A stretch of DNA of 64,000 nucleotides. Origin: Calditrichia bacterium (GTDB lineage Bacteria; Calditrichota; Calditrichia; RBG-13-44-9; J075). The notes under the pieces are model-generated. The model was not told the origin of the DNA. It was given only the letters and a program-made list of their open reading frames with translations, and searched no databases. The stretch spans positions 1,774,857-1,838,856 of the forward strand of contig JACKAQ010000001.1 in assembly GCA_020634975.1 (NCBI GenBank), written 5' to 3'. Position 1 is the stretch's first letter; each line of letters starts with the position of its first letter. A program made the position numbers and the translations under genes. This document shows, piece after piece, positions 1-25,899 of the stretch.

Positions 1-818
1 TCGCCAGTCAGGCAGTCGGCGGCAGCCAGGCAGATGCGCTGCCCGCAGCCACAGCGGTGGAGCTGTTTCACGATTTTACATTGATTCACGATGACATTAT
101 GGATCAGGATGAGCTGCGCCGGGGATTTCCCACACTGCATATCAAATACGACGAAAGCACCGCCATTTTGGCCGGCGATGCGCTGATCGGGCTGGCATTC
201 CGGGAATTGATGCGTTCACCCGCCGATGCCCGCGATCCTGCCGCCGAAATATTTACCGAAGCGCTGGTTCGCGTGTGCGAAGGGCAGGCGCTCGACAAAG
301 AATTTGAGAGCCGTAACGATGTGCAGCTCGATGAATATCTGGATATGATCGCCAAAAAAACCGCCTGGCTGATCCAGACATCCTGCGCGCTGGGCGCGAT
401 TTGCGGCAGCGGTACGCCGGAGCAAGTGCAACACCTCAGCGATTACGGCTACAATTTGGGCATGGGATTTCAGATTCAGGATGATCTGCTCGATTTTGTG
501 GCAGACGAAGTGAAGCTCGGCAAAAAAGTCGGCAGCGATTTCCGGATGCACAAAACCACTTACGTCACCCTCAAATACCGCGAAATGCTCGACGCTGATC
601 CTGCGTTGCAAGCAACCTATCCACGGGATTTACAGCAATACAGCGATTTCCCGGCATTCCAGAAAGCGCTGCGGGAACTGCAGATTATCGAAGCGGGCGA
701 GCAGGCAGCCACAACCTATTTCGACAAAGCACTGGCAGCACTCAAACAGGTGACGCCACAGGAATCCGGCAATCCGCTCTATCTGATCACGACTTTTCTT
801 CAGGAGCGCCAGTATTAG
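1..818 (+). CDS. polyprenyl diphosphate synthase (geranylgeranyl/farnesyl diphosphate synthase family), 5' partial at window edge
   Basis: The reading frame is open from base 3 and the ORF caller's GTG at 57 is internal. Both Asp-rich motifs are present (LIHDDIMD as the first, FQIQDDLLD as the second), which is the typical trans-isoprenyl diphosphate synthase architecture. Confidence 0.85.
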   Translation, partial: ASQAVGGSQADALPAATAVELFHDFTLIHDDIMDQDELRRGFPTLHIKYDESTAILAGDALIGLAFRELMRSPADARDPAAEIFTEALVRVCEGQALDKEFESRNDVQLDEYLDMIAKKTAWLIQTSCALGAICGSGTPEQVQHLSDYGYNLGMGFQIQDDLLDFVADEVKLGKKVGSDFRMHKTTYVTLKYREMLDADPALQATYPRDLQQYSDFPAFQKALRELQIIEAGEQAATTYFDKALAALKQVTPQESGNPLYLITTFLQERQY

Positions 819-5692: not shown

Positions 5693-6070
5693 CTAAACTT
5701 CGGTTGAGGTGCCAGACGGCTCATCCGGCAATTCGCTGAGAATTTTTTCCAGTTTTGTTTTGAGGGAAGGCATGTTGCGGGTCATTTCCCGCCAAATGGT
5801 TTTGGCATTGATTTCGTGATATTCATCCACTAATGAGTGGCGGAGTCCGGCGATATTTTCCCAATCAATTTGCGTATGGACAGATTTTAGCTCCGGCGAA
5901 AGCCAGTGCGCCGCCTCGCCGATAATTTCCAGCCGTTTGAGCATCGCCAGCACCATTGTTTTATCGATGCTGAAATCCTGAAAATAACCGTAATAGGCGT
6001 AGGATTCGATCTGTTGAATCATTTCCAGCATGATCTCGATACGATGCCGGTCGTTCAGCGGACGCATCAT
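5693..6070 (-). CDS. HepT-like HEPN-domain protein (DUF86), orphan
   Basis: Matches the DUF86 block IIGEAAHWLSPELKSVHTQIDWENIAGLRHSLVDEY. At the canonical Rx4HxY site the conserved His is replaced by Asp. No MntA-type nucleotidyltransferase is adjacent. Confidence 0.6.
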   Translation of the reverse strand: MMRPLNDRHRIEIMLEMIQQIESYAYYGYFQDFSIDKTMVLAMLKRLEIIGEAAHWLSPELKSVHTQIDWENIAGLRHSLVDEYHEINAKTIWREMTRNMPSLKTKLEKILSELPDEPSGTSTEV

Positions 6071-6147: not shown

Positions 6148-6570
6148 TTAACCCATGCTAAAATCCCTGCGCGCGGCAGAAATTGTTATCGTAAACCCGG
6201 CAATAACATCGATTAACGACATAACCAGCAACGCAAAAAACGTAGAATTTCCGGCGATCGGTGCCCATAAAAACGCAACCATGTACGAAATAAAAACAAA
6301 GGTAGATAAAATATGTTCAACAATTTGAGCATCGGTTGAGCGGGTGGATTTAATAATTTCGATAAACAGGCAGAACAATCCGCCCAAAATAATGACATCT
6401 TTTATTTGAATAACCCAAAAAATACCAGATGGCAACATTACACCACCCAACGCGACATCAAATGCTTCGCTTCCCACATCGGCGCTTCCACCCATAAAAA
6501 AAATAGCACCAATTGCCATATAAATTACCAAAACAATCCCGAACAACGGGATAGATTTTACTGCTTGCAT
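6148..6570 (-). CDS. small membrane protein with 4 predicted TM helices, hypothetical
   Basis: 140 aa with four hydrophobic helices and no recognisable motif. Confidence 0.4.
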   Translation of the reverse strand: MQAVKSIPLFGIVLVIYMAIGAIFFMGGSADVGSEAFDVALGGVMLPSGIFWVIQIKDVIILGGLFCLFIEIIKSTRSTDAQIVEHILSTFVFISYMVAFLWAPIAGNSTFFALLVMSLIDVIAGFTITISAARRDFSMG

Positions 6571-7271: not shown

Positions 7272-8066
7272 TTGATAAAGGATAAAAAGTTGTTGCGTTG
7301 GGCGGGTTTAATAATTTCAGGTGTGCTTGCCGTGGCTTTAATTGCCGGATGCGGCGACAGTGAAAACAGCGCGCAGCAATCGCTGACGGTTGCGGTGTCC
7401 GCAAATTTTCAGGCGCCATTCGAAAAACTGGCGGCAGCCTACCGGGACAGCACCGGTAAATCCGTGCAGCCGATTGTCAGTTCGTCCGGCAAGTTGACCA
7501 CCCAAATCCGCAACGGTGCACCGTTCGATCTGTTTTTTTCGGCGGATACGGGATATCCCAACCAACTGTTCCGGGATGGATTGGCAGTGCGCCAACCGCA
7601 AATTTACGCATCCGGCAAACTGGTGATCTGGTTTTCAGCTGCGCACCACGGACCGTTGGACATGTCTGCGCTGACAGATCTATCGCTGAAAGCGATTGCC
7701 GTTGCCAATCCCCAAATTGCACCGTATGGCGCGGCGGCAGTTACCGCGCTAGAAAATGCCGGTATATATAATGATATTGAACCGAGACTGGTTTTCGGAA
7801 GAAACGTGGCGCAGGTGAACCAATATTTGCGCAGCGGCGCGGCAGATGCGGCGATCACCGCTCAATCCGCTGTGGTTGGCAGCGATGTTCCCACAGCACA
7901 ATGGGCATTTGTGGACAGCACGCTCTACCAACCGATTGCCCAGTCAGCGGCGATCATCGCCAATCGACCGCCGCAATTGCAGGCTGCCGCCGCACATTTT
8001 CTGGATTTTTTGAACAGTCCGGTTGCCCGGAGTATTTTCCACCATTACGGATACCAATTGCCATGA
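7272..8066 (+). CDS. modA: molybdate ABC transporter substrate-binding protein ModA
   Basis: Lipoprotein signal (LIAGCGDS) followed by the ModA-type periplasmic binding fold (SANFQAPFEKLAAAY...SSGKL). The start is probably TTG at 7272. Confidence 0.8.
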   Translation: MIKDKKLLRWAGLIISGVLAVALIAGCGDSENSAQQSLTVAVSANFQAPFEKLAAAYRDSTGKSVQPIVSSSGKLTTQIRNGAPFDLFFSADTGYPNQLFRDGLAVRQPQIYASGKLVIWFSAAHHGPLDMSALTDLSLKAIAVANPQIAPYGAAAVTALENAGIYNDIEPRLVFGRNVAQVNQYLRSGAADAAITAQSAVVGSDVPTAQWAFVDSTLYQPIAQSAAIIANRPPQLQAAAAHFLDFLNSPVARSIFHHYGYQLP

Positions 8067-8479
8067 ATCGCGTACCCGCAGAAATTATCAATATTGAAAC
8101 CGCAGATGCTATTTCGCTGGTCGATCTGGTTGCATTCGGCGACACATTTTCCTGCGTGCTGATCGAAACGCCGGAAACCGCGCCGTATTTGCGGATCGGA
8201 AATCGCGTATCGCTGGTGTTTAAAGAAACGGAAATCGCCATCGCGAAAAATTTTTCCGGTCAGATCAGTTTGCGGAATCGCTTTGCGGCGACCATCCGCG
8301 CTATCGAAAACGGCGTGGTGCTCAGCAAAATTACGATGGATTTTCACGGCATTTCGATCATTTCGATCATCACCGCCCGATCCGCTGCAACACTCAACCT
8401 GCAACCCGGCGACGCCGTTACCGGATTGGTGAAAGCCAACGAAATCGCCATTTTCGCCGATGACGGGGGGGCAATTTGA
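8063..8479 (+). CDS. TOBE/Mop-domain (molybdopterin-binding) protein
   Basis: 138 aa with two TOBE-like halves. Its ATG overlaps the modA stop codon (ATGA). The longer ORF from 7901 is an in-frame upstream artefact. Confidence 0.6.
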   Translation: MNRVPAEIINIETADAISLVDLVAFGDTFSCVLIETPETAPYLRIGNRVSLVFKETEIAIAKNFSGQISLRNRFAATIRAIENGVVLSKITMDFHGISIISIITARSAATLNLQPGDAVTGLVKANEIAIFADDGGAI

Positions 8480-9147
8480 ACCTCGACTGGCAACCGTTGG
8501 CGCTCACATTTCAACTGGCGGGCATCACCACTGCGGTGCTGCTGCTGATCGGGATTCCGCTGGGTTACCTGCTGGCGAGTTGGGAAAATCGCTGGAAATA
8601 CGTACTGCAAACGCTGGTGAGCATGCCGCTGGTATTGCCGCCAACCGTACTCGGTTTTTACCTGCTGCTGGCGTTCAGTCCCACCGGCGCGTTCGGGCAA
8701 TTTCTGGAAAATACATTCGACCTGAGATTGGTGTTCTCGTTCGAAGGGCTGGTGATCGCTTCCATTATCTACAGTCTGCCGTTTATGGTCAATCCCATCC
8801 AGGCAGGATTCCAGAGTTTACCGGCATCGCTGGCGGAAGCGTCTGTTTCGTTGGGAAAATCTCGGTTGGAAACATTTTGGAAGGTGTTGCTGCCAAACAT
8901 CAAACCGTCCCTGCTGATCGGCACGGTGCTCAGTTTCGCGCACACGGTCGGCGAATTCGGGGTGATTTTGATGATCGGCGGCAGCATTCCCGGCGAAACA
9001 CGGGTTGCCGCCATCGCCATTTACGACGAAGTTGAAGCGCTAAATTATGCCACAGCACATACTTACGCGGCAATCTTATTGGGAATTACGTTCGCCATTT
9101 TGTTAACGGTGTATTTGGTCAATCGAAAATTATTGAAAGCGTTTTAG
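8476..9147 (+). CDS. modB: molybdate ABC transporter permease ModB
   Basis: Shows the ABC permease EAA-like loop and a ModB-like sequence (LVSMPLVLPPTVLGFYLLL...). Six TM helices. No ATPase (modC) follows it. Confidence 0.85.
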   Translation: MNLDWQPLALTFQLAGITTAVLLLIGIPLGYLLASWENRWKYVLQTLVSMPLVLPPTVLGFYLLLAFSPTGAFGQFLENTFDLRLVFSFEGLVIASIIYSLPFMVNPIQAGFQSLPASLAEASVSLGKSRLETFWKVLLPNIKPSLLIGTVLSFAHTVGEFGVILMIGGSIPGETRVAAIAIYDEVEALNYATAHTYAAILLGITFAILLTVYLVNRKLLKAF

Positions 9148-9920
9148 CGCGCGGAATGAATCGCATCGGCGAAATCGCGGAGTTGCGACAGGCTGTTTTT
9201 CTCCTCAAAAAAATTACCCACCACCACAAATCTGGCACCGGCTGCGGCTTTTTTCTGCGCCATTTCAGGCGTGCGGATGCCGCCACCGGCGATCACGGGG
9301 ATTTCCAGATGTGCGGAAACCAGCGCAATCATCTCCTCCGGAACGGTTTGCTGGGCGCCGCTGCCCGCTTCCAGATACACCATTTTCATGCCCATATATT
9401 GTGCAGCCAGCGCATGCGCCAGCGCGATGCCCGGTTTGGCGCGGGGAATTGGCATGGAGTTGCTCACAAACGAAGCGCTGGTGAGCGTGCCCGATTCGAT
9501 GAGCATGTAGCCGCAGGAAATCGCCTCCAGTCCCATGTTGAAAATTACCGGCGAGGCAACTGCCTGATTACCGATGAGGTGCTCCGGGTTGCGTCCGCTG
9601 ATCAGCGAAATAAACAGGATTGCGTCCGCATGCCGGGAAATCTGGAAAAGGCTGCCGGGAAAAATGACCACCGGATGATCGCCAGCTGCCGATTTCATCC
9701 GGCGGATGGTTTCATCAAAATCGCCGCCGTGGAGCAGGCTGCCGCCCACAAAAAAGGCATCCACACCGGCGTCGATGGCGTTTCCCATCAAATCCGGCAA
9801 CGCATCCGCGCTGATTTTGTCCGGGTCCAGCAGCAAAATAAACCCGCAGCCGTTGCGATCTGCTGTGTTCAATAATTTTTGGTAGGTGTTGGCGGATAGC
9901 GCCGAAGGTCTGGTTTTCAT
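9144..9920 (-). CDS. pcrB: PcrB-family (hepta/geranylgeranyl)glyceryl phosphate synthase (GGGPS group II)
   Basis: Has the (beta/alpha)8 PcrB/GGGPS signature (GCGFILLLDPDK...AIDAGVDAFFVGGS...VIAGGGIRTPE...FVVVGN). Length is 258 aa. Confidence 0.8.
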   Translation of the reverse strand: MKTRPSALSANTYQKLLNTADRNGCGFILLLDPDKISADALPDLMGNAIDAGVDAFFVGGSLLHGGDFDETIRRMKSAAGDHPVVIFPGSLFQISRHADAILFISLISGRNPEHLIGNQAVASPVIFNMGLEAISCGYMLIESGTLTSASFVSNSMPIPRAKPGIALAHALAAQYMGMKMVYLEAGSGAQQTVPEEMIALVSAHLEIPVIAGGGIRTPEMAQKKAAAGARFVVVGNFFEEKNSLSQLRDFADAIHSAR

Positions 9921-10114
9921 AAATACAAATCTTTCGTAACGGAATTCTCAACAGTTGTTGACGACAAAAGCGACAGATTTAATTAGAACCGTTATGCACA
10001 AAACCTAAATCAAACAATTACAACAGTTAATTTGGGTAATTTTTGTAAAAATTATTGGTACCGTATTTGCTAAAATAGAAATACAACCTGTACTCATACT
10101 TACCTCCATCATCA

Positions 10115-10147
10115 GGACCGGAGCCAGTTGGCTCCGGTCTTTTTATT
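10115..10147. terminator. intrinsic-terminator-like hairpin (plus-strand oriented: stem then T-tract)
   Basis: 10 bp stem (gaccggagcc / ggctccggtc), loop agtt, followed by tttttatttatt. It overlaps the HAD gene stop codon. No plus-strand ORF lies upstream of it. Confidence 0.5.
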
Positions 10148-11102
10148 TATTGCCCGACCGGGCAGACAACCAATCCGGCAATTCGCCGATGGAATCCAGC
10201 CAGATGGCGGCTGCGTTTTTGTGTTTCTCCGTAGAATCGTCGCTCAATTTCCCGGTTTTTACGGCAATGCCCTGCAATCCGGCGGCAATGCTGCCTTCGA
10301 TATCCGATTCCCAGTCATCGCCGATCATCGCAACATTTTCTTTGGGTAAGTTGAGTAAATTTACCGCCTGTTCGTAAAACGCCGGGCTCGGCTTCCCGAC
10401 CAGCGCGGCGGTTTGTCCGGTGGCGTATTCCAGCGCGGCAACGATCGCACCGGTGTCGATCGACAAACCGTCGCTGCGCCGCCAGTAGCGATTTTTCTGC
10501 ATCGCCAGCATTTTGGCGCCGCCCATCACATGTCGAAACGCCTGGTTGATTTTGTTGTATGTTAAATCTTCGCCCAGATCGCCAATAACCAGATAGTCCG
10601 GTTTCGCGGTTGTGATTCTGAAATCCTTGAATTCCCGGTGGGTATCGCCGCTGGTAAGCAGGCAAACGGATGCTGCTTTTTGGGCATGCAGCCAGCACGA
10701 TGCCGCATACGGCGCCGAGTAGATCTGGTCCACTTCAATTTTAAACCCCATCCGTTTGAGATTGTTCACCAACGAATAGCGGCTTTTCCGGGTGGTGTTG
10801 GTCGCCAGTAAAAACGGGATATTTTCGCGACGCAGATATTCCAGCGCTTCGATTGCGCCACGAATGATCTGGTTTTCAATACACAACACACCGTCGATAT
10901 CGATTAAAAATCCCCGGATTGGGGTTGCCGGCTGTTCCGGCTGTGCATGATCCGGCTGAATCTTTTCCGCATCGATTGCGGCCGGTTGCACGCCAGGTTG
11001 CCGTTTGCGTTTGCGATTAGCCATTTTTCCTCCGACACTGAAGCAGGTTATTTTACCATCATTCGGGCAATTTCTCAAGTTTTTTTTCGAAGCCGCGCAC
11101 AT
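10143..11102 (-). CDS. HAD-IIA family hydrolase (NagD/UMPase-like phosphatase)
   Basis: HAD motif I (LIDIDGVL), followed by the HAD-IIA cap and motifs (GKPSP...IGDDWESDI). There is a K/R- and Q/P-rich N-terminal extension of about 60 aa. Start is at 11024 or 11102. Confidence 0.75.
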   Translation of the reverse strand: MCAASKKNLRNCPNDGKITCFSVGGKMANRKRKRQPGVQPAAIDAEKIQPDHAQPEQPATPIRGFLIDIDGVLCIENQIIRGAIEALEYLRRENIPFLLATNTTRKSRYSLVNNLKRMGFKIEVDQIYSAPYAASCWLHAQKAASVCLLTSGDTHREFKDFRITTAKPDYLVIGDLGEDLTYNKINQAFRHVMGGAKMLAMQKNRYWRRSDGLSIDTGAIVAALEYATGQTAALVGKPSPAFYEQAVNLLNLPKENVAMIGDDWESDIEGSIAAGLQGIAVKTGKLSDDSTEKHKNAAAIWLDSIGELPDWLSARSGNK

Positions 11103-11235
11103 ATAGCCCGCAAACCGGATTTTTCACCGCGATCGCCCTTTACTTTTTTGGCGATGTTTTGTACCTTGGCACGTTCTAACCCCAGCAAAATCAACGGGGA
11201 TTCCCATTTGACCGAACCTATCGCGAAAGGATTGT

Positions 11236-13227
11236 ATGCTATTACGCCACCACGTCCGCCGATTAGTAACGATTTGTATTGTTGCACTCTTCACCGCAGT
11301 TATCAGCACAACAGCAGCGGCGCAGGAAACGACTTTCGATGCAAAGTTACCCCGCATTGCACTGGCGGATATCGCATTTACAGTGGAAATCCAGCCGGCG
11401 CTGACCGCCTATTTCAACAGCGATTCGGCGGGAATTCCCTACCAAATCAGCCTTTCGGACGGCACAGTACTGGCCAGCGGAAACGCGCAGTTGTTGCCGG
11501 ATGCGCCGGGAAACATCAGCATCGCAGATGTCATAATTCCCGAGAGCGGTGCAAAAAAACTGCAGATTCGCTTTGGCGATTCCGTGCAGGAGAAATCGCT
11601 GCGGGTGCTGCCGCCGGTGCTGAGCATCTTGCCGCCTTTGCTGGCGATTGTGCTGGCACTGGTCACCCGACAGGTGATTGTCGCGCTGTTTTTCGGCGTG
11701 TGGCTGGGTGTGACGTTTGTGTACGATTTTTCCGTTTTCAGCGGATTTTTGCACACGCTGGATGAATATATCGTGAACGCAGTGGCGAATCCCGATCACG
11801 CGTTTATCATTATTTTTAGCCTGCTGCTTGGCGGGATGGTCGGTGTGATCAGCAAATCCGGCGGCACGCAGGGTATTGTCGAAAAACTGGCTGTTTACGC
11901 AAAAGATGCCCGTGGCGGGCAAATTGCGACATGGCTGATGGGCGTGCTGATCTTTTTCGACGATTACGCCAACAGCCTGATTGTCGGCAACACAATGCGC
12001 CCATTGGCGGACAAGTTGCGCATTTCGCGGGAAAAACTGTCGTATCTGGTCGATTCGACCGCAGCACCGGTGTCGAATATCGCCATTATCTCCACCTGGA
12101 TCGGTTACGAAGTGAGCCTGATGAGCCAGGCATTCAAAACCCACGGCATCGACCGGAACGCGTATATCACGTTTATCGAAACGATTCCGTATAATTTTTA
12201 TCCGCTGTTTTCCCTGTTTTTGGGATTGCTGGTAGCGATAATGATGCGCGATTTCGGCCCAATGTACACAGCCGAAAAACGCGCCCGAACCACCGGCGAA
12301 GTGCTCGGCGCTACCGCCAACCCACTGGCAGATTTGGGCGGTGCAGAGCTGATGGCGGATGAAAGCACCCCAAAACGCTGGTACAACGCGCTCATTCCGG
12401 TGGCAGCGGTAATCCTCACCGTGGGCATCGGGCTGTTTGCCACAGGCTGGAACAGCGGGCTGGAAGGGCTGGCCCAACAATTGGCAGAGGAAGGCAAAAC
12501 CCTCGCCGATGCCGGATGGATTCACAAAACCAGCGCGATTATCGGTGCGGCAAATTCGTTTTCCGTACTGATGTGGGCATCGTTTATCGGTGGATTGGTA
12601 GCAATTGTTCTGGCGATGAGTCAACGCCTGCTAACGTTGCAGCAATCGCTGGACGCATGGCTCGGCGGCATCAAATCGATGATGCTGGCATGTATCATCC
12701 TCACCTCTGCATGGGCGATTGGCAGTATTTGCGGCGACCTGTTCACTGCCGACTATGTGGTTAGTCTCACCAAACAATTCCTTTCGCCGGAGTGGCTGCC
12801 GCTGCTCATTTTTCTCAGCGCTGCGGTAATAGCGTTTGCCACCGGCACATCGTGGGGAACGATGGCGATTCTCATGCCGATCGCCATTCCGTTGGCACAC
12901 AAATTCCCGATGGAAGTACCCGGCATCGACGAAGCGCATGCCACGGCGCTGCTGCTTTGTGTGACCGGCGCGGTGCTGGCCGGCGCAACCTTTGGCGACC
13001 ACTGTTCGCCAATTTCCGATACCACCATTTTATCTTCGATGGCTTCCGGATCGGATCACATCGACCATGTGCGCACCCAATTGCCATACGCGCTCACCGC
13101 CGGCGCTGTGGCCTGCATTTTCGGCTACATTCCAGTTGGCTTCGGGATGAACCACTGGCTGACACTGCCGTTCGGCGCGATTGCGGTTTGGGCGCTGGTA
13201 CGATTTTACGGCAAATCGACAGCCTGA
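11236..13227 (+). CDS. nhaC: NhaC-family Na+/H+ antiporter with N-terminal periplasmic extension
   Basis: 663 aa. A signal peptide and a roughly 120 aa extracytoplasmic domain precede a typical NhaC core (FDDYANSLIVGNTMRPL...). Confidence 0.75.
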   Translation: MLLRHHVRRLVTICIVALFTAVISTTAAAQETTFDAKLPRIALADIAFTVEIQPALTAYFNSDSAGIPYQISLSDGTVLASGNAQLLPDAPGNISIADVIIPESGAKKLQIRFGDSVQEKSLRVLPPVLSILPPLLAIVLALVTRQVIVALFFGVWLGVTFVYDFSVFSGFLHTLDEYIVNAVANPDHAFIIIFSLLLGGMVGVISKSGGTQGIVEKLAVYAKDARGGQIATWLMGVLIFFDDYANSLIVGNTMRPLADKLRISREKLSYLVDSTAAPVSNIAIISTWIGYEVSLMSQAFKTHGIDRNAYITFIETIPYNFYPLFSLFLGLLVAIMMRDFGPMYTAEKRARTTGEVLGATANPLADLGGAELMADESTPKRWYNALIPVAAVILTVGIGLFATGWNSGLEGLAQQLAEEGKTLADAGWIHKTSAIIGAANSFSVLMWASFIGGLVAIVLAMSQRLLTLQQSLDAWLGGIKSMMLACIILTSAWAIGSICGDLFTADYVVSLTKQFLSPEWLPLLIFLSAAVIAFATGTSWGTMAILMPIAIPLAHKFPMEVPGIDEAHATALLLCVTGAVLAGATFGDHCSPISDTTILSSMASGSDHIDHVRTQLPYALTAGAVACIFGYIPVGFGMNHWLTLPFGAIAVWALVRFYGKSTA

Positions 13228-13235
13228 TTTTTGGG

Positions 13236-13679
13236 ATGAAAAATAGCAAATTAACATCCTTTTCGCTGGTCATACTCCAGTTTTTGTTTGTCGGTATAAT
13301 TGCATTCAGCGGGCCTGTTATTCCTTCCAAATTGATGTGGGCGCTGCTCTTTTGGAGCGGGATCGGTTTGGGTATCTGGGCAATTTTGACGATGAAAATC
13401 GGCAATTTCAATATTATTCCGGATGTGAAAAATAATGGAAAAATGGTCATCTCCGGTCCGTATCGCCACATTCGACACCCGATGTATTCCGCTCTGCTAC
13501 TGAGCACCTTGGCGGAAATTGGCAATGCTTTTTCACCACTACGTCTGACGATGTGGATGCTGCTTTTCATCATTTTATTATTCAAATTGCATTATGAAGA
13601 GCGACTCCTTTTTGCCCATTTCCCGGAATATCCGGCATATGCAGCGCGAACCAAACGGCTGTTTCCATTTTTGATTTGA
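13236..13679 (+). CDS. isoprenylcysteine carboxyl methyltransferase (ICMT)-family membrane methyltransferase
   Basis: Carries the ICMT block (GPYRHIRHPMY...EE..L...F..Y..Y) and 4 TM helices. The ORF caller's 12792 start is an artefactual upstream extension. Confidence 0.65.
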   Translation: MKNSKLTSFSLVILQFLFVGIIAFSGPVIPSKLMWALLFWSGIGLGIWAILTMKIGNFNIIPDVKNNGKMVISGPYRHIRHPMYSALLLSTLAEIGNAFSPLRLTMWMLLFIILLFKLHYEERLLFAHFPEYPAYAARTKRLFPFLI

Positions 13680-13713: not shown

Positions 13714-15207
13714 ATGAAAAAATTTATTTTAGCAATCGATCAGGGCACATCCAGTTCCCGGGCAATTGTGTTCGATACAGCCGGAAAAATCCGTGCGGTT
13801 GCCCAACGGGAATTCCGGCAGCACTTCCCCAATTCCGGATGGGTGGAACATGATGCGCTGGAAATTTGGGGAACGCAGTCCGCCGTTGCGGCAGAGGCCA
13901 TTCGCGCCGTTGATCCGTCGGGGAAAAATATTGCGGCAATCGGCATCACCAATCAGCGGGAAACCACGGTGCTCTGGCACCGCGATACCGGAAAACCGCT
14001 GCACAACGCGATTGTCTGGCAGGATCGCCGCACCGCGGCGTATTGCGATTCGCTGAAAAATCAGGGTTGGGCGGAGAAAATCCGGCAAAAATCCGGATTG
14101 GTGATCGACGCATATTTTTCCGGCACCAAACTGAAATGGCTACTGGACAATGTTCCCGGTGCCCGCAAACTGGCGGAAAATGGCGAGCTGGCATTCGGTA
14201 CCATCGACAGTTGGCTGGTTTGGCAACTCACCGGCGGCAAATTGCACATCACCGATGCGAGCAACGCCAGCCGCACGATGTTGTTCAACATTCATACCGG
14301 CAAATGGGACGCGGAATTGCTGGATCTGCTGAACATTCCCGCATCTGTACTGCCGGAAGTCCGTGCCTCCAGCGAGCACTACGGCAACACCGTGAAACAA
14401 ACCGCATTCCCGTTCGAATTGCCTATTTCCGGGATTGCCGGCGATCAGCAAGCGGCATTATTCGGTCAGATGTGCACACAACCCGGTATGCTCAAAAACA
14501 CCTACGGCACCGGCTGTTTCATGATGCTGAACACGGGCGATTCGCCGGTTACATCGCAAAACCGGCTGCTCAGCACGGTTGCATGGAAAATTGACGGGAA
14601 AATAACGTATGCGCTGGAAGGCAGCATCTTCACCGCGGGCGCGGTGGTGCAGTGGCTGCGGGACGGGCTGGGCATCATCAAAACATCTGCGGAAGTGGAG
14701 CAACTGGCGCAATCCGTGACGGACAACGGCGGCATCTATTTTGTCCCGGCGTTTACCGGTCTCGGCGCACCGCATTGGGATTCGTTCGCACGCGGCGCGA
14801 TGGTCGGATTGTCGCGCGGGAGCACTGCCGGGCACATTGCCCGCGCGGCGCTGGAAAGCATCGCATTTCAGACAATGGATGTGCTGAAAGCGATGGAAGC
14901 GGATGCCGGTTTCCGGGTGAAATCGCTGCGGGTGGATGGCGGCGCAACGGCTAATAATTTGCTGATGCAGTTTCAATCCGATGTGCTGAACATTCCGGTG
15001 GATCGCCCGATAGTGCTGGAAACCACCGCGCTCGGCGCGGCGTATCTGGCCGGACTCGGCGTAAATTTCTGGAAAAACACCGGAGAAATTGCGGCGCAGT
15101 GGCAACTGGAACGCCAGTTCCGGCCGACAGCGGATGCATCAACCATTGCCGATTTGACCGGTAACTGGCAACGCGCGCTGGAACGCGCCAAAAACTGGGA
15201 TGTTTAA
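13714..15207 (+). CDS. glpK: glycerol kinase
   Basis: Full-length FGGY kinase ([15 protein letters not shown]...) colinear with GlpK over 497 aa. Confidence 0.95.
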
Positions 15208-15262: not shown

Positions 15263-17161
15263 CTACCGCTTCAACACAAACTGCATGTTATCCCGTTTCA
15301 CAACTTCGCTGATAAATTCGCGATAAGCGGCGTATTTTTCGAGCGGAATTTCCCGCGTTTCCAGCCGGAATTGCCGCAAATAGCGCAGCCGATTATCCGC
15401 CAATTCGTATTCGATCCGGTAAGTGCCGAATTCAGATTCGATGGTTTCCTGCGGCGGTGCGGCTTCCAGCGCGTAACCGGGCGGTAAGCTGATATAAACC
15501 GTATCTGCATCCTCAAATGCGTAGTTAAATGAAACCGAAAACTTGCGTTCATCCGGCGATTCTTCCGGTGGGTATTTTTGAAAACTGGTTGATCACATTC
15601 GGGCTCAAAAATAACCGGCTGGCGCTGCGCGTCGCAAAATTTTTCATTTCGCCGGAAAAATGCACAACGCAGGGCTGATCGACATTTTCAGCAAGATTTT
15701 CGACAGTAAATTCCGCCAGATCGAATCGTGAGGCACTGAGGCTGATCAACCGACTGCGCAGCCAATCCTGCTGTTTTTCGATTTCCACACCAATAAACCG
15801 CCCACGAACATAGCTTGACCGGTTACCGGTTGTGGCAAACCAACCGCTCATTTGCAGCGCACCATCTTCGCCAATGCGGCCTTCGGTGCGGCTGGTCATC
15901 AAATTATCTTCCGGACGACTGACTGGTGTTTGGATAATTTTGCCGCCCTCGGCTTCAACCACCAGCACTTTTGCGCCTTCAACGGAATATGGTAATTCTC
16001 CGGCGGGAATGTAATCTGCGGTGCATTCCAGCCAAACCGTATCTTCCGGTAACGGCACGACGGCAATGCAATGGTTAAACTGGTTGGATGGAAATTCTTC
16101 AATAAAATTGATGGCATCGCGGGTGGGCGTAAGTGCCAAATGTGCGGGAATATTCACCACATCCAGCATCGCGACCATTAGGGTGGATAAATCTTTGCAA
16201 TCGCCATATTTATTTTCGAAAACAGATTGCGCGCTGTATGGCTGCCAACCGCCGATACCCAGATCGATGCTCACATAACGCGAATTATTCTGCAAATAGG
16301 CGTATAATTTGCTGATTTTGGTTTTGGCATCGTCATCAGGATTCACCAGCGCAGCAACTTCCTGACGAATGAGTTCGGGCAAAATCAGCCGGTCGGCTGT
16401 CAATCCGCGATACCACTGCGCCAGACCATTCCAGTCGCGGAAATGCCCGAATGAGTTCTCCAGCGCAAATCTTTCCGGGGTAAAATACAGGATCATCCGG
16501 TTGCTGTTGTTTTTCGACATATAATCTTCGCTCTCAAAAGCGGGGAGCAACGCGGCATTCCAAATGTGCGAAACACTGCTGGAGCGAATCGTTTTTGGTG
16601 ATGTTTCCATATTTACGGCATGGGTGCGAAACGCAACTGTCGTATCGCGCAACACCAGTTTGTAGCTGCTGCTTAACACGGGCACATTTTTTTGTGGAAA
16701 CCAGTCCGGCCAAAAAACAGTGTGCTCATTTCTGCTTCGGTGCTGTATTCCACAACATATGGAAATTTTGGCCAAGTTGAATTAATCCATTGATAACGCG
16801 AATCGCTATACAACGAATATCCGGGCGAATAATCTTCTTTCAGGATGTCGCTATTTTTGTATTTTTTTAGCTCTTCACCATCGGTGCTCAAAATTCGCAC
16901 ATCTATTTTTTTCTTTTTGATAAATTTGTTTTCGCTAACACCAGGAATACCGTAACCTTTGCCTTCATCGTTATTGATTTGAACTTTGCGGGAATAGCGA
17001 ACATAAGCTTTTCCCTGGCCGAGAACTTCGAATTCTGTCTCATCGGAAAGGATGATTGCATCGTGCGAACCAGACAAAATATCGACGGTTTGGGCTGTGC
17101 CGAAACCGCCCCACAACGCAACAGATAAAAATATCACACCGTAAATTGATCGCATTTCCAT
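15263..17161 (-). CDS. DUF3857/DUF3858 transglutaminase-like protein, interrupted by two frameshifts
   Basis: Signal peptide, a DUF3857 N-terminal region, a transglutaminase core with catalytic Cys (YGDCKDLSTLMVAML) and a DUF3858-like C-terminus (GTYRIEYELADNRLRYLRQ) that resumes in another frame. The frame breaks are near 16690 (T7 run) and near 15550. Confidence 0.65.
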
Positions 17162-19075: not shown

Positions 19076-20686
19076 TTGGGCTGGATTTGGATGCAATTGA
19101 GTCATCGAAAAAACAGGAGATCGGAAATGAATCGCACGGAAATGATCGAATCGCTGCGGCAAATGCCGGGGTTTTGGGATATCGTCATCATCGGTGGCGG
19201 CGCAACGGGATTGGGCGTAGCAGTGGAATCCGCATCGCGCGGCTACCGGACGCTGCTGCTGGAGCAGCACGATTTTGCCAAAGGCACCTCCAGCCGCAGC
19301 ACAAAGCTGATTCACGGCGGCGTGCGCTATTTGCGGCAGGGCAACATTTCGCTGGTGCTGGAAGCGCTGCACGAACGCGGATTGCTGGCGGAAAACGCCC
19401 CGCATCTGGTGCGGCACCAATCGTTTATCGTGCCAAATTACGAATGGTGGGAAGGACCGTTTTACGGCATCGGGCTGAAAATGTATGACATGCTCGCCGG
19501 AAAACTTGGGCTGCGTCCCTCCAAAATCCTCTCCCGCAGCGAAACGCTTAAACGCATTCCCACACTGGAGCCGGAAGGCTTACGCGGCGGCGTCATTTAT
19601 TACGACGGACAATTTGACGACGCGCGGCTGGCGGTCAATCTGGCGCAAACGGTTGTCGATCTGGGCGGAACGCCGCTCAATTACATGCAAGTTACCGGGC
19701 TGCAAAAATCCAACAACATGACCAGCGGCGTGACCGCGATGGACATGGAAACCGGCGAAAATTTCGAAATTGCCGCGCGGGTGGTGGTGAACGCAACCGG
19801 CGTTTTTACCGATGCGATCCGCAACATGGACGAGCCGGATGCCACCCCGATCATCCAGCCGAGTCAGGGCGTGCATCTGGTGCTGGACGCCGAATTTTTG
19901 CCGGGAAATGCCGCGGTTATGGTGCCGGAAACCGACGACGGTCGCGTGCTGTTCGCGGTGCCGTGGCACGGAAAAGTGGTCGTGGGAACGACGGATACAC
20001 CGATTGAATCGCCATCGCTGGAGCCGCGCGCGCTGGATAGCGAAATCGAATTTATCCTGAAACACGCCGCGCGATACCTCACCAAAGATCCCACCCGCGA
20101 CGACGTGCTCAGCGTGTTCGCCGGATTGCGTCCGCTGGTGAAAATGGAGGACGAGAAAAACACGGCGGCGCTGTCGCGCGATCACACCATTCTGGTGTCG
20201 TCATCCGGGCTGTTGACCATCACCGGCGGGAAGTGGACAACTTATCGCAAAATGGGCGAAGATACCGTTGCGCAAGCCGCGATGATTGCCGGACTGCCGC
20301 ATCGCCCCACCCGAACCGCGAATTTGCGCATCCACGGCTGGCTCAAAAATGTGGACGACAGCGATCCGCTGCACTTTTACGGCTCGGACGCGCTGTCCAT
20401 TCAACGAATGATCAAAGAAAGCCCCGAACTCGGCAAACCGCTGCACCCGAATTTACCCTATTGTCCGGCGGAAGTGCGCTGGTCCGTACAAAAAGAAATG
20501 GCACGAACCGTGGAAGATGTGCTCGCCCGCAGAACCCGCGCGCTGCTGCTCGATGCCCGCGCTGCCATCGAAATGGCACCAACTGTCGCCAAAATTATGG
20601 CGGACGAATTGAAAAAAAATGCGCAGTGGGAGCAGCAACAAACCCATGATTTTATTGAACTTGCGAAAGGCTACCTGCCATCGTGA
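19076..20686 (+). CDS. glpD: FAD-dependent glycerol-3-phosphate dehydrogenase
   Basis: FAD-binding GxGxxG motif (VIIGGGATG) and GlpD-type colinearity over about 520 aa. The probable start is MNRTEM near 19127. Confidence 0.9.
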   Translation: MGWIWMQLSHRKNRRSEMNRTEMIESLRQMPGFWDIVIIGGGATGLGVAVESASRGYRTLLLEQHDFAKGTSSRSTKLIHGGVRYLRQGNISLVLEALHERGLLAENAPHLVRHQSFIVPNYEWWEGPFYGIGLKMYDMLAGKLGLRPSKILSRSETLKRIPTLEPEGLRGGVIYYDGQFDDARLAVNLAQTVVDLGGTPLNYMQVTGLQKSNNMTSGVTAMDMETGENFEIAARVVVNATGVFTDAIRNMDEPDATPIIQPSQGVHLVLDAEFLPGNAAVMVPETDDGRVLFAVPWHGKVVVGTTDTPIESPSLEPRALDSEIEFILKHAARYLTKDPTRDDVLSVFAGLRPLVKMEDEKNTAALSRDHTILVSSSGLLTITGGKWTTYRKMGEDTVAQAAMIAGLPHRPTRTANLRIHGWLKNVDDSDPLHFYGSDALSIQRMIKESPELGKPLHPNLPYCPAEVRWSVQKEMARTVEDVLARRTRALLLDARAAIEMAPTVAKIMADELKKNAQWEQQQTHDFIELAKGYLPS

Positions 20687-20962: not shown

Positions 20963-22381
20963 ATGTTCACCGCGAAAAATATCAAACTGATTGTTGCCAT
21001 TGCGATTCCCATTTTATCCTTTTTCTGCCGGCAACGGCAATTCCCATCGATAATTTGAGCATCATCGAGCAGCGGGTTATCGCCCTGTTTGTGATGGCAA
21101 CCCTGTTCTGGATTCTCGAACCGATTCCCGTTTTTGCCACTTCCGTGCTGATCATCGCGCTGGAATTATTCATGATGTCCGATAAAGTTTTCTGCTGTTC
21201 CAGAACACCGCCGGACTGGAAAATTTTGGCAAAGCGATCAGCTATAAAGCGATAATGGCAACATTCGCCTCGCCGATTATCCTGCTGTTTTTGGGTGGAT
21301 TTTTTCTGGCGATGGCCGCCACCAAATACCGGCTGGATGTGAACCTCGCCCGGTGCTGCTCAAACCGTTCGGCACAAATCCCCGATGGGTGCTGCTCGGG
21401 TTAATGGTGATAACTGCCGTATTTTCGATGTTTATGAGCAACACCGCCACCACCGCGATGATGTTGGCGCTGCTCACGCCCATCCTCGCTTCGCTGGATG
21501 ATGGCGACGCGGGCAAAGCCGCATTTGTGCTGGGCATTCCGTTTGCGGCAAATATCGGCGGGATCGGAACGCCCATCGGCACGCCGCCAAATGCGGTTGC
21601 ACTAAAATATCTCACCGGAAAATTTGCCATCGGTTTCGGCGAGTGGATGAGCTTTGCCGTGCCGTTTGTAATCGTGATGCTCATTTTCGCATGGCGATTG
21701 CTGCTCTTTTTGTTTCCGCCCCAATCACCAAAACTGGAACTGACCATCAAAAGCAAATTTCTTAAAAACTGGAAAGCCGTCACGGTTTACGCAACTTTTG
21801 TGATCACCATTTTGCTGTGGTTGCTGGACGGATTTCACGGGATGAATTCATACGTCGTCGCGATGATTCCGGTGGCGGTGTTCAGCGCATCGGGCATCAT
21901 CACCAAAGAAGATCTGAAGCTGATCAGTTGGGATGTGCTCTGGCTGGTTTCCGGCGGTATCGCGCTGGGTATGGCAATGGAGGAAACCGGTTTGGCAAAA
22001 AACCTCATCGAAAACATCCCGTTCGATACTTTCCCGGCGATTGCTATCGTGCTGTCCACCACGCTCATCGCGCTGCTGATGGCAACGTTCATGTCGCATA
22101 CGGCGACATCCAACCTGATTTTGCCGATCGTTTCAGCGCTGGGCGTGAATCTCGCCAGCCTCGAATTGTTTGGCGGCGGAAAAATGTTGATTCTGTCGGT
22201 CACTTTCGCCTGTTCGCTGGCAATGGCGCTGGCAATTTCCACACCGCCAAATGCGATGGCGCAGGCTACCGGACTCGTTCGCAGCGACCAGTTGATGAAA
22301 AGCGGGTTGACCATCAGCATCGTCGGGCTATTGGGTGTTTACCTGCTGATGTTTATATTGAAACAGATTGCATTTTTTTAA
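20963..22381 (+). pseudogene. DASS/SLC13-family anion:Na+ symporter, disrupted by at least 3 frameshifts
   Basis: The N-terminus (MFTAKNIKLIVAIAIPILSFF), the segment EPIPVFATSVLIIALELFMM, the segment AIMATFASPIILLFLGGFFLAMAATKYRLDVNLA and the 342-aa C-terminal ORF with its SNTATTAMMLAL signature lie in three different frames. Confidence 0.7.
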
Positions 22382-22481
22382 TGGTGTGAGTATACGATTT
22401 GTTGATAAACAGTGGCTTCGACTGGCTCAGCCGCCACAAAAGGAAATTTATCCTTTATCACTTATCCTTTGAAAAATTGAA

Positions 22482-23836
22482 ATGAAAGATTTCTACCAAC
22501 ATTTGAACCTGAACGTGCTGATCAGCGCCTATTTTTCCGATCCCGAACAGCGGATTAATCTGGAAAAAGGCGACTATCTGATGCGCGAAGGTGACTACAA
22601 CGACCGGCTGTTTCTGGTGTTGAAAGGTTCGCTTTCCGGTTATTTTAACGATCCGGACGGTCATTCGCGATTTTATTTCCGGCTGCAAAGCGGCATGTTT
22701 GCCGGTGTCTACAGCTTTTTTTCGCAGACATTTCGCAGCAGCACAACCATCATTGCGGATGAACCGGCGGAAGTGGCATTTATCGATCGTTCCCAAAAAC
22801 CGGTGCGGCTGGATAAAAAAGAGAGCATCTGCGAACAATTTATGCCGGTAGTGGCGGCGGATTTGGCGCATCGCCAGCAGTTGGCGCAACACATTTCATT
22901 CGAAAAACAGCAAACGCTCAAAAAACTGATCGAAACCGAAAAACTGGCGTCGCTCGGACAAATGGCTGCGGGCATTTCTCACGAATTGAATAACGCCGTT
23001 GCCGTGCTGCAGCGCGGCTCGCAATGGCTCAGCGAAAATCTGGCTGTGCTGATTCAAAATGAGCAGCAGAAACAATTTTTTGATGCCGGCAACCAACACG
23101 GGCGCCATCTTTCTACCCGGGATGTTCGCCAGCGGAAGCGCGAATTGCAGCAGCGATTCGGCATTTCCGACGACGCTGCGGAGCACTTTGCCGAAACCGG
23201 CGTTCCCGATGACCTGTTGCCTAAAAACCCAAAGAAATGGAGCGCGATGCGGCAATGTTGCATCACTGCTGGGAAATTGGTGCATCGCTGTGCGGGATGC
23301 GTTCGGCGGCCAATCACGCCACATATGTATCGCGATCGGTGAAAACACTCGGCGCACCGCACTCTTATCGCCGCAATGACGAAGATGTTAACGAAAGCAT
23401 TCGCGAAGGGCTGGCGCTGATGTATAGCCCGCTTCGTAAAATCAATGTGATCAACGATTTAAAAGAGCTGCCGCTGATCACGGCGAATCGCGGAGAACTG
23501 GTGCAGATCTGGATCAACCTGATCAAAAATGCCTGCGACAGCCTGTTCAGCGATCCTACGCCGAACCCGCGCATCGCCATCCGCAGCAGTTTTTCGGACA
23601 ACAACATTTGTGTGGAAGTCGAGGACAACGGACCGGGAATTCCGGAAGATATCCGGGCAAATATTTTCCAGCCCAATTTTACCACCAAAGTGGAAGGGTT
23701 GTCTTTCGGGCTCGGTTTGGGGCTGACAATTGTGCAACGGCTGGTGGATAGTTACAGCGGAAAAATTTCGGTAACGAGCAAGCCGGGAAAAACCGTTTTC
23801 AAAATTTTGCTGCCGGTTCCGGAATCAAATTTTTGA
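22482..23836 (+). CDS. sensor histidine kinase with N-terminal cyclic-nucleotide-binding-like domain (one frameshift)
   Basis: A cNMP-binding-like N-terminus ([13 protein letters not shown]...FAGVYSFF), a HisKA H-box (ISHELNNAV) and HATPase_c N/G boxes ([25 protein letters not shown]). The frame breaks near 23225-23240 at an aaaaacccaaag run. Confidence 0.7.
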
Positions 23837-24506: not shown

Positions 24507-24678
24507 AAGAAAAACGGGAAACCGCCGCCGCCTGTATTGTGCGATTTCCCGCCTTTAGAGATATGAGTTCTATTTTATTGCTGCCCAAAACCGGACAGTG
24601 CATCTTTTTTTAAGAAAACGGGAAACCGCCGCCGCCTGTAAATTTGCAGTTTCCCGCATCAGAGATATGAGTTCTATA
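24507..24678. repeat. two ~67 bp direct repeats (~85% identical, 105 bp period), each with an internal hairpin
   Basis: Copy A lies at 24507-24573 and copy B at 24612-24678. The core is aagaaaacgggaaaccgccgccgcctgta...tttcccgc...agagatatgagttctat, with stem CGGGAAA(C)/(G)TTTCCCG. On the minus strand each hairpin is followed by a T-rich tract. Confidence 0.7.
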
Positions 24679-25899
24679 TTGTCGCAGAGATTCCGTTTTC
24701 TGCAGGTTGTGTTGATTGTGTTCAACGTTCAACCTGAGATAAATATAGCGGAAAAAAGTGCGGTTTTCCATGCCCCAAAAGGGGGATTTTTCAATCGGGA
24801 AGCTGCTATTTTTTTGTTTTTGAACTGACCCCGCCAATTGCGCCACAGATTCAAGCACCATTTCCGGCGAAATTTCCCGCATGCAGCGAAAGTGCCCTTT
24901 GGGGCAGGTGGCTTTGCCGATATGACTGCACGGCCGGCAATTCAGCCCGCTATTTTCCACAATTGCGGCGTTTGGGTTGATCGGAAAAAATCCCAGCTCG
25001 CGGGTGGTGGAGCCGAAAATGGCGATTTGCGGCACAGCGAAAGCGGCGGCGGCGTGCATCAATCCGGAATCGTTGCTGATGAACAACGGCGTTTGGCTGA
25101 TCGCGCCGAATGTTTCGGTCAGCGATAATTCCCCGGCGATGTTTTCTGTGCAATCTGCACCTGCAGCCAAAATTTCCGCGCAAATGTCCCGCTCATCCGG
25201 TCCGCCAACCAGCAGCGTTCGCCAGCCGAAATCGGCGTGCAACCGGCGAATCAGCGCGGCGTAATTTTCCGGCAGCCAGCGTTTGGTGAAATGCCGGGCG
25301 CCCGGCGCCATCAGCACGTGAATGCCGTTTTCCCGCCAGTTTTGCCAGCGCGTATCCGTTGCTTTGCGGATCTCCGGTGAGAGATGCAGTTCGGTTTTTG
25401 TGTCGCGAATGTCCGTGCCGAGCGGCGCTGCGGCGCGCAAATATTTCTCCGCGACAGATGGCACATTGCCGTAAATTTTCGTATACCAGTTGATCTTGTA
25501 ATTCACCAGCAAATGCCGCAACACTTTGTTTTTTCTCATCTTGAGAACTAACTTCGCACCGCTGAACAGCCGCAGCCAGAAGCTGCGCAAATTGCCCTGC
25601 AAATCGAGAATCACATCGTATCCCGTCGCGCGGATGCGCAGTTTTTCCAGCGAAAGCGCGCCCTTTTTCCGAACGTCAATTTCGATGAGATTGGAAATAT
25701 GCGGATTTGCCCGCAGCACGTCCGCAAATTCCCGGCGAATCAAAAAGTCGATTTGCGCATCGGGAAATGTTTCGCGGAGCTGGCGGATCACCGGCGTTGT
25801 CAAAATCACGTCGCCGATGGAGCTCATGCGGATAATCAGTATTTTTCGGGGTTCTGGCATTTGGTGAATTGAAAATGGGCGGACAATTTGCCCGCCCAA
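24610..25899 (-). CDS. glycosyltransferase family 9 (heptosyltransferase-like)
   Basis: GT9 N-terminal motif (ILIIRMSSIGDVILTTP) and C-terminal GT-B region (FISNDSGLMHAAAAF). The last roughly 70 aa of the ORF read through the repeat pair and look non-native. Confidence 0.7.
   Translation of the reverse strand: MGGQIVRPFSIHQMPEPRKILIIRMSSIGDVILTTPVIRQLRETFPDAQIDFLIRREFADVLRANPHISNLIEIDVRKKGALSLEKLRIRATGYDVILDLQGNLRSFWLRLFSGAKLVLKMRKNKVLRHLLVNYKINWYTKIYGNVPSVAEKYLRAAAPLGTDIRDTKTELHLSPEIRKATDTRWQNWRENGIHVLMAPGARHFTKRWLPENYAALIRRLHADFGWRTLLVGGPDERDICAEILAAGADCTENIAGELSLTETFGAISQTPLFISNDSGLMHAAAAFAVPQIAIFGSTTRELGFFPINPNAAIVENSGLNCRPCSHIGKATCPKGHFRCMREISPEMVLESVAQLAGSVQKQKNSSFPIEKSPFWGMENRTFFRYIYLRLNVEHNQHNLQKTESLRQYRTHISDAGNCKFTGGGGFPFS

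Follow-up and report, generated by a model that had tools for sequence, protein, structure and literature searches.

A group-II geranylgeranylglyceryl phosphate synthase and its HAD-IIA neighbor in a Calditrichia genome

We analyzed a 64-kb stretch of DNA from a Calditrichia bacterium (GenBank assembly GCA_020634975.1, contig JACKAQ010000001.1, positions 1,774,857 to 1,838,856 of the forward strand; hereafter the window, 64,000 nt in all), with attention to two adjacent genes of its minus strand. One, at 9144–9920, encodes a group-II geranylgeranylglyceryl phosphate synthase (GGGPS) of the PcrB/GGGPS family; the other, directly upstream at 10143–11024, encodes a HAD-IIA phosphatase of the TIGR01458 (HDHD2/LHPP-like) family. 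A preliminary description of the locus had proposed that the phosphatase supplies the missing dephosphorylation step after PcrB. The reading we favor, with some reserve, is that PcrB is an ordinary group-II GGGPS of the type found in the Fibrobacteres–Chlorobi–Bacteroidetes (FCB) superphylum, and that the HAD gene is a lineage-specific and probably incidental neighbor. The window has a GC content of ~50%, and its closest protein relatives come from metagenome-assembled genomes (MAGs) of Calditrichia, Calditrichota or Calditrichaeota. One related genome piece, L001, is fully syntenic with it, with 93.5% DNA identity over ~18 kb.

Identity and group of the synthase

The gene at 9144–9920 (–) is intact and encodes 258 aa. 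Its product matched the Pfam profile PF01884 (PcrB) with E=3e-39 and 135 bits (cutoff 23.9), and it exceeded the cutoffs of both NCBIfam NF003198 (275 versus 247 bits) and TIGR01769, named 'phosphoglycerol geranylgeranyltransferase' (197 versus 162 bits). On NF003199, the second GGGPS/HepGPS subfamily model, it scored only 41.6 bits. When compared with all PDB sequences, the protein matched best the GGGPS of Flavobacterium johnsoniae (4JEJ, E=1.4e-51, residues 12–241 aligned) and next that of Methanothermobacter (M. thermautotrophicus; 4MM1, E=3.2e-50), followed by the further solved GGGPS chains 6NKE (E=3e-40) and 6JO3 (E=1.4e-38). Group I chains (Archaeoglobus GGGPS, Bacillus PcrB) gave no match at E≤1e-3 in this search. 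Judged by profile scores and PDB matches, PcrB of the window belongs to group II and is not a Firmicutes-type heptaprenyl PcrB. This bears out the group-II assignment made in the preliminary description. It had also named clustering with heptaprenyl-specific Firmicutes enzymes as a finding that would speak against its proposal; the PDB chains matched were all of group II.

The same description had called for a look at the residues that determine chain length. For group II enzymes the proposed limiter is I90 in the F. johnsoniae enzyme and V86 in the M. thermautotrophicus enzyme, by a rule described as not sharply defined (PMC9385802). I94 of the window PcrB aligns with both, and the same column holds I, V or L in 26 FCB homologs. 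The protein has, then, a small aliphatic limiter on helix alpha3', consistent with C20 specificity. The F. johnsoniae GGGPS thus resembles the window PcrB in three ways, as its best solved match, as a fellow FCB enzyme and in the shared limiter Ile. Bacillus PcrB differs: it belongs to group I and is C35-specific, with Ala at the Trp limiter position and Tyr104 lower (PMC9385802).

A second diagnostic residue is the 'aromatic anchor' of hexameric group II enzymes, W141 in the M. thermautotrophicus GGGPS, where dimeric Flavobacteriales enzymes have a charged residue (PMC7888582). F151 of the window PcrB aligns with W141 (the W141A variant, 5NF1, was used for comparison), and F or Y occupies this position in 26/26 aligned homologs. 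The anchor sets the window protein apart from the dimeric Flavobacteriales enzymes, and a hexamer is therefore predicted, as in most group II enzymes (PMC7888582). Across the 26 FCB homologs 61 columns are invariant, and the strongly conserved positions of the family are all kept in PcrB, including D32, the YLEAGSGA segment and the GGGIR loop. With limiter I94 and anchor F151, PcrB looks like a hexamer-type, C20-limited GGGPS. Group-II GGGPS from Bacteroidetes make C20 geranylgeranylglyceryl phosphate (GGGP), according to the summaries of Peterhoff et al. 2014 given in PMC7888582 and PMC9385802. The window enzyme would likewise condense geranylgeranyl diphosphate (GGPP; C20) with glycerol phosphate, preferably glycerol-1-phosphate (G1P), to yield GGGP and pyrophosphate (PPi).

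The HAD-IIA phosphatase and its place beside PcrB

The neighboring gene was assigned to the HAD-IIA phosphatases from several matches. In its longest open reading frame (ORF), 10143–11102 (–), Pfam detected Hydrolase_6 (E=2e-20) and Hydrolase_like (E=5e-19), and TIGR01458 (HAD-IIA-hyp3) scored 188 bits against a cutoff of 176. All four HAD motifs are intact and invariant in 23 homologs: DxDG (D42/D44), TNTT (T75–T78), K211 and GDD..D (D236/D237/D241), in the numbering of a 293-aa protein. Among solved structures, HDHD2 (E=2.7e-42) and LHPP (E=4.1e-39) come nearest, ahead of p-nitrophenyl phosphate (pNPP), pyridoxal phosphate (PLP), NagD, phosphoglycolate and glycerol-phosphate phosphatases, with Rv1692 and PGP among the distant relatives. 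An AlphaFold2 (AF2) model had a mean predicted local distance difference test (pLDDT) score of 88.5, and Foldseek aligned it to HDHD2 (3HLT) with template modeling (TM) scores of 0.80/0.91 at 34% identity. In its TIGR01458 score, its four intact motifs and these TM scores of 0.80–0.91, the window protein is like HDHD2/LHPP; it is unlike them in a disordered, basic and Q/P-rich tail of ~35 residues and in the clade-specific residues A74, W238 and S245. The characterized structural relatives all use small soluble substrates (pNPP, PLP, phosphoglycolate, glycerol phosphate, NagD substrates, PPi), and no lipid phosphatase is found among the characterized relatives. The window HAD is a soluble HDHD2/LHPP-like phosphatase that acts most likely on a small soluble phosphoester or pyrophosphate, as its Calditrichia orthologs presumably do.

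The proposal under scrutiny makes the HAD protein a dedicated GGGP phosphatase. It would convert GGGP to geranylgeranylglycerol, much as heptaprenylglyceryl phosphate (HepGP) is converted to heptaprenylglycerol (HepG) in Bacillus, and the product may then function as a lipid carrier or anchor, not as bulk membrane lipid. We consider this unlikely. The B. subtilis route (PcrB, a phosphatase, YvoF and LhaT; PMC12345273, PMC9179154) starts from a homologous synthase and requires dephosphorylation, for which no dedicated enzyme has been assigned; a 'non-specific phosphatase' is credited with the step (PMC12345273). This is a gap that a dedicated enzyme would close. Our literature search turned up no paper in which a GGGP phosphatase is assigned for Bacteroidetes or other FCB bacteria. 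Against the proposal stands the capped HAD-IIA fold, whose characterized members act on small soluble substrates.

The N-terminal extension, which the preliminary description had singled out, depends on where the protein starts. Orthologs are called at 274–293 aa and begin at a Met equivalent to M27 of the long ORF. A Shine–Dalgarno sequence, GGAGGA, precedes ATG 11024, and a promoter-like site, TTGAGA-17-TAAAAT, lies at 11078–11050 (–), inside the longer ORF; both belong to a divergent promoter region, 11025–11235, between the HAD gene and an antiporter gene. ATG 11102 was rejected as the start, given the starts in relatives and the position of these two signals. Translation most probably begins at ATG 11024 and gives 293 aa, so that the phosphatase reported at 10143–11102 stands as an intact HAD-IIA gene directly upstream of PcrB on the same strand, with its 5' end moved to 11024. 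The K/R- and Q/P-rich extension is real, and with this start it comprises only ~35 residues (MANRKRKRQPGVQPAAIDAEKIQPDHAQPEQPATP). Residues 1–35 lack predicted secondary structure and are disordered in the AF2 model (pLDDT ~57), and in the alignment of 23 homologs the length and composition of the tail vary freely, even among the closest relatives. A basic tail could favor membrane association, a point for the GGGP phosphatase proposal. Yet within the clade in which HAD adjoins PcrB, two proteins (P0126 and P0127) have short, non-basic N-termini. We rejected the tail as a membrane-targeting feature, as it is unconserved within this clade and predicted to be disordered.

To assess how often the two genes occur together, we surveyed loci from both sides. 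On the PcrB side, alignment searches across GTDB, with each species represented by one genome, gave 80 loci (L002–L081) from Calditrichota, Ignavibacteriota and Bacteroidota, with PcrB 52–66% identical, and all window proteins were searched against them by tblastn. A HAD-IIA gene was found within 10 kb of PcrB in 0/80 of these FCB loci, even at E≤0.01. On the HAD side, close homologs are common in Calditrichia, and the family is widespread in phyla and at loci that lack PcrB. Among 80 metagenomic TIGR01458-type loci, PcrB was present in one (L088), and no neighbor recurred in more than 10. Two metagenomic loci (L090, 240–3965; L091, 5118–8765) have a 49%-identical TIGR01458 HAD ~2 kb downstream of a GT9 heptosyltransferase gene, whose product is 50% identical to that of window 24610–25899.

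Orthologs of the HAD have other partners. Three of them, 57–59% identical, each run 1–4 nt into a DUF1684 gene at its start (L169, 8001–9526; L170, 8001–9421; L171, 8001–9466) in three otherwise different neighborhoods, and none of the three has PcrB within 8 kb. The overlap suggests that HAD and DUF1684 form a functional pair in other Calditrichia, which argues against a dedicated role on GGGP. The preliminary description had itself held that HAD homologs lying beside unrelated genes in relatives would count against it, and this is the situation observed. In MAG CAZFVV01, moreover, HAD (L169) and PcrB (L005) reside on different contigs, i.e. they are unlinked.

Besides the window, the HAD–PcrB pair was found in L082/83, L086/87, L084/85, L168 and L088, whose PcrB and HAD proteins are 65–72% and 62–66% identical to those of the window, respectively. 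In a neighbor-joining tree of PcrB, the window and all pair loci form one clade, nested among Calditrichota that have a BCAM0308-like or GmhB-like gene upstream and a GmhA-like gene downstream of PcrB. Because all pair loci form one monophyletic clade, the adjacency has a single origin, and comparative support for a HAD–PcrB link therefore amounts to one event; the adjacency does not recur in independent lineages. We suggest that the ancestor of a small Calditrichia clade underwent a single rearrangement, which put HAD beside PcrB and, in doing so, parted each gene from its former partner, PcrB from an ancestral GmhA-like one.

The DNA between the two genes (9921–10142, minus strand) is 222 bp long and 35% GC, and holds a hairpin, a conserved block and a small ORF. 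Across the pair loci the HAD–PcrB gap measures 168–222 bp, versus a median of 16 bp between PcrB and the GmhA-like gene in 58 loci. The hairpin, at 10114–10141, starts 5 nt after the HAD stop codon and is a perfect, GC-rich 10-bp stem (–21.7 kcal/mol, z=–7.0). In L082 and L086 a hairpin of different sequence occupies the same place (z=–3.3 and –4.9), kept by compensatory changes. Directly after the hairpin comes a 29-nt block, GATGATGGAGGTAAGTATGAGTACAGGTT, identical in the window, L001, L082 and L086; the corresponding hairpin and block regions lie at 9786–9850 in L082 and 9816–9880 in L086. The spacers of L084, L088 and L168 differ from that of the window, and an Rfam scan of 8000–12000 (E≤1) found no family in the gap. 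The small ORF, at 10005–10097 (–), encodes 30 aa, as against 16 aa in L082 and L086, and is conserved only over its first five or six codons, MSTG(C/Y)I. Upstream of PcrB, the small ORF or the 29-nt block may encode a leader peptide or a small protein, or act as a regulatory site.

The pair thus shows neither tight spacing nor translational coupling free of an intervening terminator. HAD and PcrB are probably transcribed separately or with only loose coupling: HAD comes with a promoter-like site of its own and a strong hairpin at its 3' end, and PcrB is preceded by an AT-rich stretch of ~190 bp. A 222-bp gap with a strong hairpin counts against a dedicated GGGP phosphatase. Together with the single origin of the adjacency, its absence from 80 other FCB PcrB loci and the unlinked genes of CAZFVV01, it leaves the proposed dephosphorylation role of HAD unsupported.

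Several observations nonetheless pull the other way and weigh against an incidental neighborhood. First, the pair was kept while both of its outer flanks changed and PcrB diverged by ~30% across these loci. The gene upstream of HAD is that of the antiporter in the window and L084 and that of an alpha/beta hydrolase in L168; the gene downstream of PcrB is modB in the window and, in L084 and L168, wzx, a Wzx-type flippase gene accompanied by glycosyltransferases. Same-strand adjacency held in about six distinct genomes despite such rearrangements also speaks for a GGGP phosphatase, although the argument is weak because only two breakpoints are present among the three junctions. Second, only A74, W238 and S245 are shared by all six HADs of the PcrB clade and differ in 17/17 other homologs, and all lie beside catalytic motif II (TNTT) or IV (GDD); a GDDW motif replaces the GDD(L/M/I) of all other homologs. 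These changes could mark a change of substrate and would fit a phosphatase recruited to GGGP, but they are suggestive only, because such columns are easiest to find in conserved regions. Third, in six sister Calditrichaceae loci a different HAD, GmhB-like and of the HAD-IIIA type (171 bits versus a cutoff of 178), lies directly upstream of PcrB, so that a phosphatase occupies the equivalent position there too. Finally, the hairpin is flanked on the coding strand by an A tract before it, with no U tract after it, and the 29-nt block holds GGAGG, a 6-nt spacer and the ATG that opens the small ORF. Because a hairpin without a U tract is followed by a conserved Shine–Dalgarno sequence and ATG, read-through into PcrB is possible.

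Prenyl synthase, glycerol genes and other genes of the window

The prenyl donor for PcrB may be made from within the window. As the preliminary description had stated, a polyprenyl synthase gene lies at the window start (3–818, plus strand; PF00348, E=7e-59), its 5' end cut by the window edge. Its best NCBIfam similarities are to IdsA and the archaeal short-chain GGPP synthase, all below cutoff; no NCBIfam equivalog cutoff was reached, even by a full-length ortholog. The protein reads HDFTLIHDDIMD, with Phe at –5 and Thr at –4 of an uninserted first Asp-rich motif (DDIMD). Phe at –5 before an uninserted DDxxD is the pattern of archaeal type-I GGPP synthases (PMC9385802). The gene product is a probable short-chain, archaeal-type GGPP synthase, its chain length being read from the –5 Phe rule only, and it plausibly supplies GGPP to PcrB. 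The two genes are 8 kb apart on opposite strands with unrelated genes between them, and, the closest relatives aside, the synthase gene is found near PcrB only in L079, which is also the sole one of the 80 GTDB loci with the antiporter gene near PcrB.

The glycerol genes reported within 10 kb of PcrB are present too: glpK at 13714–15207 (+), encoding glycerol kinase (NF000756, 805 bits versus a cutoff of 498), and a gene for a GlpD-like FAD-dependent glycerol-3-phosphate dehydrogenase at 19076–20686 (+; DAO E=9e-61, DAO_C E=5.5e-24; NF008899, 293 bits, below the cutoff of 360). GlpK makes and GlpD oxidizes glycerol-3-phosphate (G3P), not G1P. We rejected the two genes as a G1P supply, since they encode G3P enzymes and are not syntenic with PcrB in L084 or L168. 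They were near PcrB in none of the 80 GTDB loci.

These genes bear on a further explanation, in which HAD aids PcrB indirectly, either by hydrolyzing the pyrophosphate released, as an LHPP-type enzyme, or by setting the glycerol-phosphate pool. LHPP, a pyrophosphatase, is among the closest solved relatives of HAD, the more distant Rv1692 and PGP are glycerol-phosphate phosphatases, and glpK and glpD lie within 10 kb in L082 and L086 as in the window. In B. subtilis, the gene yvoE/ppaX, which encodes a HAD pyrophosphatase, adjoins yvoF. But deletion of yvoE, the neighbor of yvoF, leaves the B. subtilis pathway working (PMC12345273). The absence of glpK and glpD from the neighborhood in L084 and L168, and the spread of the HAD family through phyla and loci without PcrB, also count against an indirect role. 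Such a role seems improbable, and about as likely as direct dephosphorylation of GGGP.

Several other genes surround the pair. Divergent from HAD, at 11236–13227 (+), lies a gene for an NhaC-family Na+/H+ antiporter-like membrane protein (PF03553, E=6e-59), which adjoins HAD in L082/83, L086/87 and L084/85 and not in L168. Downstream of it, 3 kb from PcrB, is an ICMT/PEMT-family membrane methyltransferase gene (13236–13679, plus strand; PF04140 E=1.2e-7, PF04191 E=6e-7), found at the same place in L001 and L084 and not called in L082 and L086. Molybdate transport genes (modA, Mop-TOBE and modB; 7272–9147, plus strand; TIGR01256 176 bits, TIGR00638 62 bits, TIGR02141 235 bits) converge on the PcrB 3' end and are unrelated neighbors.

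Further afield, 44400–45230 (+) encodes a protein that strongly matches (E=6.6e-61) the catalytic domain of the MpaB/Lcp 'rubber oxygenase' family, whose members oxidize or cleave isoprenoid chains. A HepT-like RNase toxin gene (E=5.7e-17) adjoins an unannotated ORF of 140 aa conserved in relatives (5693–6070 and 6148–6570, both minus strand), and the two are possibly a toxin–antitoxin pair. At 56240–59590 (+), a protein of 1116 aa combines a long TPR array with two matches to Ser/Thr kinase domains, and kinase-domain fragments follow at 59613–60750. Compared with their intact orthologs, some genes are split between frames: over three frames for a transglutaminase-like gene and for a CitMHS transporter gene, and over two for a cNMP-binding histidine kinase gene. 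Similar in appearance are an acyl-CoA dehydrogenase gene without its C-terminal domain, a DJ-1/AraC pair and the kinase fragments. The split genes (15266–17161; 21016–22381; 22479–23818; 26243–27094; 31652–32634; 59613–60750) reflect either indel errors of the assembly or pseudogenes; PcrB and HAD are intact.

PcrB in other FCB bacteria and the fate of GGGP

Other enzymes that would handle GGGP were sought in the window and beyond. A Pfam scan that covered roughly 56 ORFs showed no UbiA-type prenyltransferase, no G1P dehydrogenase (G1PDH; EgsA/AraM) and no YvoF-like acetyltransferase encoded in the 64-kb window. Nor did any hydrophobic ORF of 200 aa or more, in the window or the 171 fetched loci, carry the UbiA motif N[DQ]xxDxxxD. 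The lack of a YvoF-like gene among the window ORFs, and a local prenyl synthase that looks short-chain, distinguish this locus from the Bacillus pathway; the former is a further point against a dedicated GGGP phosphatase.

The FCB enzymes offer a closer comparison. Coleman et al. 2019 (PMC6431249) surveyed 12 FCB phyla, among them Caldithrix, and reported orthologs of GGGPS and of digeranylgeranylglyceryl phosphate synthase (DGGGPS) in every one, with G1PDH only in Fibrobacteres and Cloacimonetes. Calditrichaeota are listed with both GGGPS and DGGGPS homologs, the genes being co-localized only in Cloacimonetes (PMC7852524 and its supplement). The window PcrB shares the superphylum and the group-II bacterial clade of these enzymes. 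The window lacks a G1PDH gene, and most FCB phyla, Caldithrix among them, are reported to have none (PMC6431249). The window PcrB differs from the Cloacimonetes pair in that no UbiA-type gene accompanies it, here or in the 171 fetched loci, which agrees with the published restriction of co-localization to Cloacimonetes. When expressed in Escherichia coli, Cloacimonetes GGGPS and DGGGPS gave archaeal-type lipids (Villanueva et al. 2020, PMC7852524). The ether-lipid capacity of FCB bacteria, which the preliminary description had treated as an open question, has thus been answered in part in print (PMC6431249, PMC7852524). In the window organism, GGGP could be dephosphorylated, or a UbiA-type DGGGPS could add a second prenyl chain to it, a route that has been proposed in FCB bacteria.

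The genes around PcrB in other FCB bacteria form a distinct pattern. A GmhA-like SIS isomerase gene lies directly downstream of PcrB in 62 of the 80 loci, often overlapping it (examples: L002, 1126–2478; L015, 9313–12855; L018, 4945–7819; the 16-bp median gap given above comes from the 58 loci measured). On TIGR00441 the isomerase falls just short of the cutoff (198 versus 209 bits). A WbaP-like (Bac_transf) initiating sugar transferase gene follows in 32/80 loci, and alaS lies upstream of PcrB in 53/80. In Calditrichota, Wzx-type flippase and glycosyltransferase genes come after PcrB, including in L084 and L168 of the HAD clade. A literature search found no papers that mention GGGPS together with phosphoheptose isomerase. 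From this gene order, the PcrB–GmhA-like coupling may mean that GGGP takes part in the synthesis of envelope glycans.

Pressed further, this pattern yields a broader explanation, that FCB PcrB serves envelope glycan synthesis by way of a GGGP-derived carrier or anchor lipid, with its phosphatase neighbors (GmhB-like or HAD-IIA) taking part, and not the making of bulk archaeal-type lipid. Recent work on Bacillus gives a precedent, in that acetylated HepG (Ac-HepG) is a carrier lipid there, bearing the acetyl group used in N-acetylation of lipoproteins (PMC12345273), and the GmhA-like, WbaP-like and Wzx-type genes after PcrB speak for a glycan role. Yet this support comes from synteny only. alaS is an equally frequent neighbor, and part of the PcrB neighborhood pattern is therefore plain conserved gene order. 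No glycan genes flank PcrB in the window itself, and the Cloacimonetes GGGPS and DGGGPS, once expressed, give archaeal-type phospholipids (PMC7852524). On balance we hold this explanation to be of low probability. The same is true of a version that joins it to HAD, in which the HAD-IIA protein was recruited, through A74, W238 and S245, as a GGGP phosphatase in place of the GmhB-like HAD, and geranylgeranylglycerol acts as a carrier or anchor for glycan or acyl transfer, like Ac-HepG; we think it doubtful.

In the reading we prefer, an ordinary FCB-type GGGPS with an incidental HAD neighbor, a GGGPS in this phylum is expected from the literature, and the locus adds one more FCB genome with a group-II enzyme. 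If HAD did process GGGP, bacterial prenylglyceryl-phosphate pathways would have a dedicated phosphatase assigned to them for the first time, and the finding would point to a monoether (carrier-type) fate of GGGP in FCB bacteria rather than to archaeal-type diethers. The more useful lead is the tight coupling of PcrB to GmhA-like and polysaccharide-synthesis genes across FCB lineages, which could guide experiments on the purpose of GGGP in bacteria.

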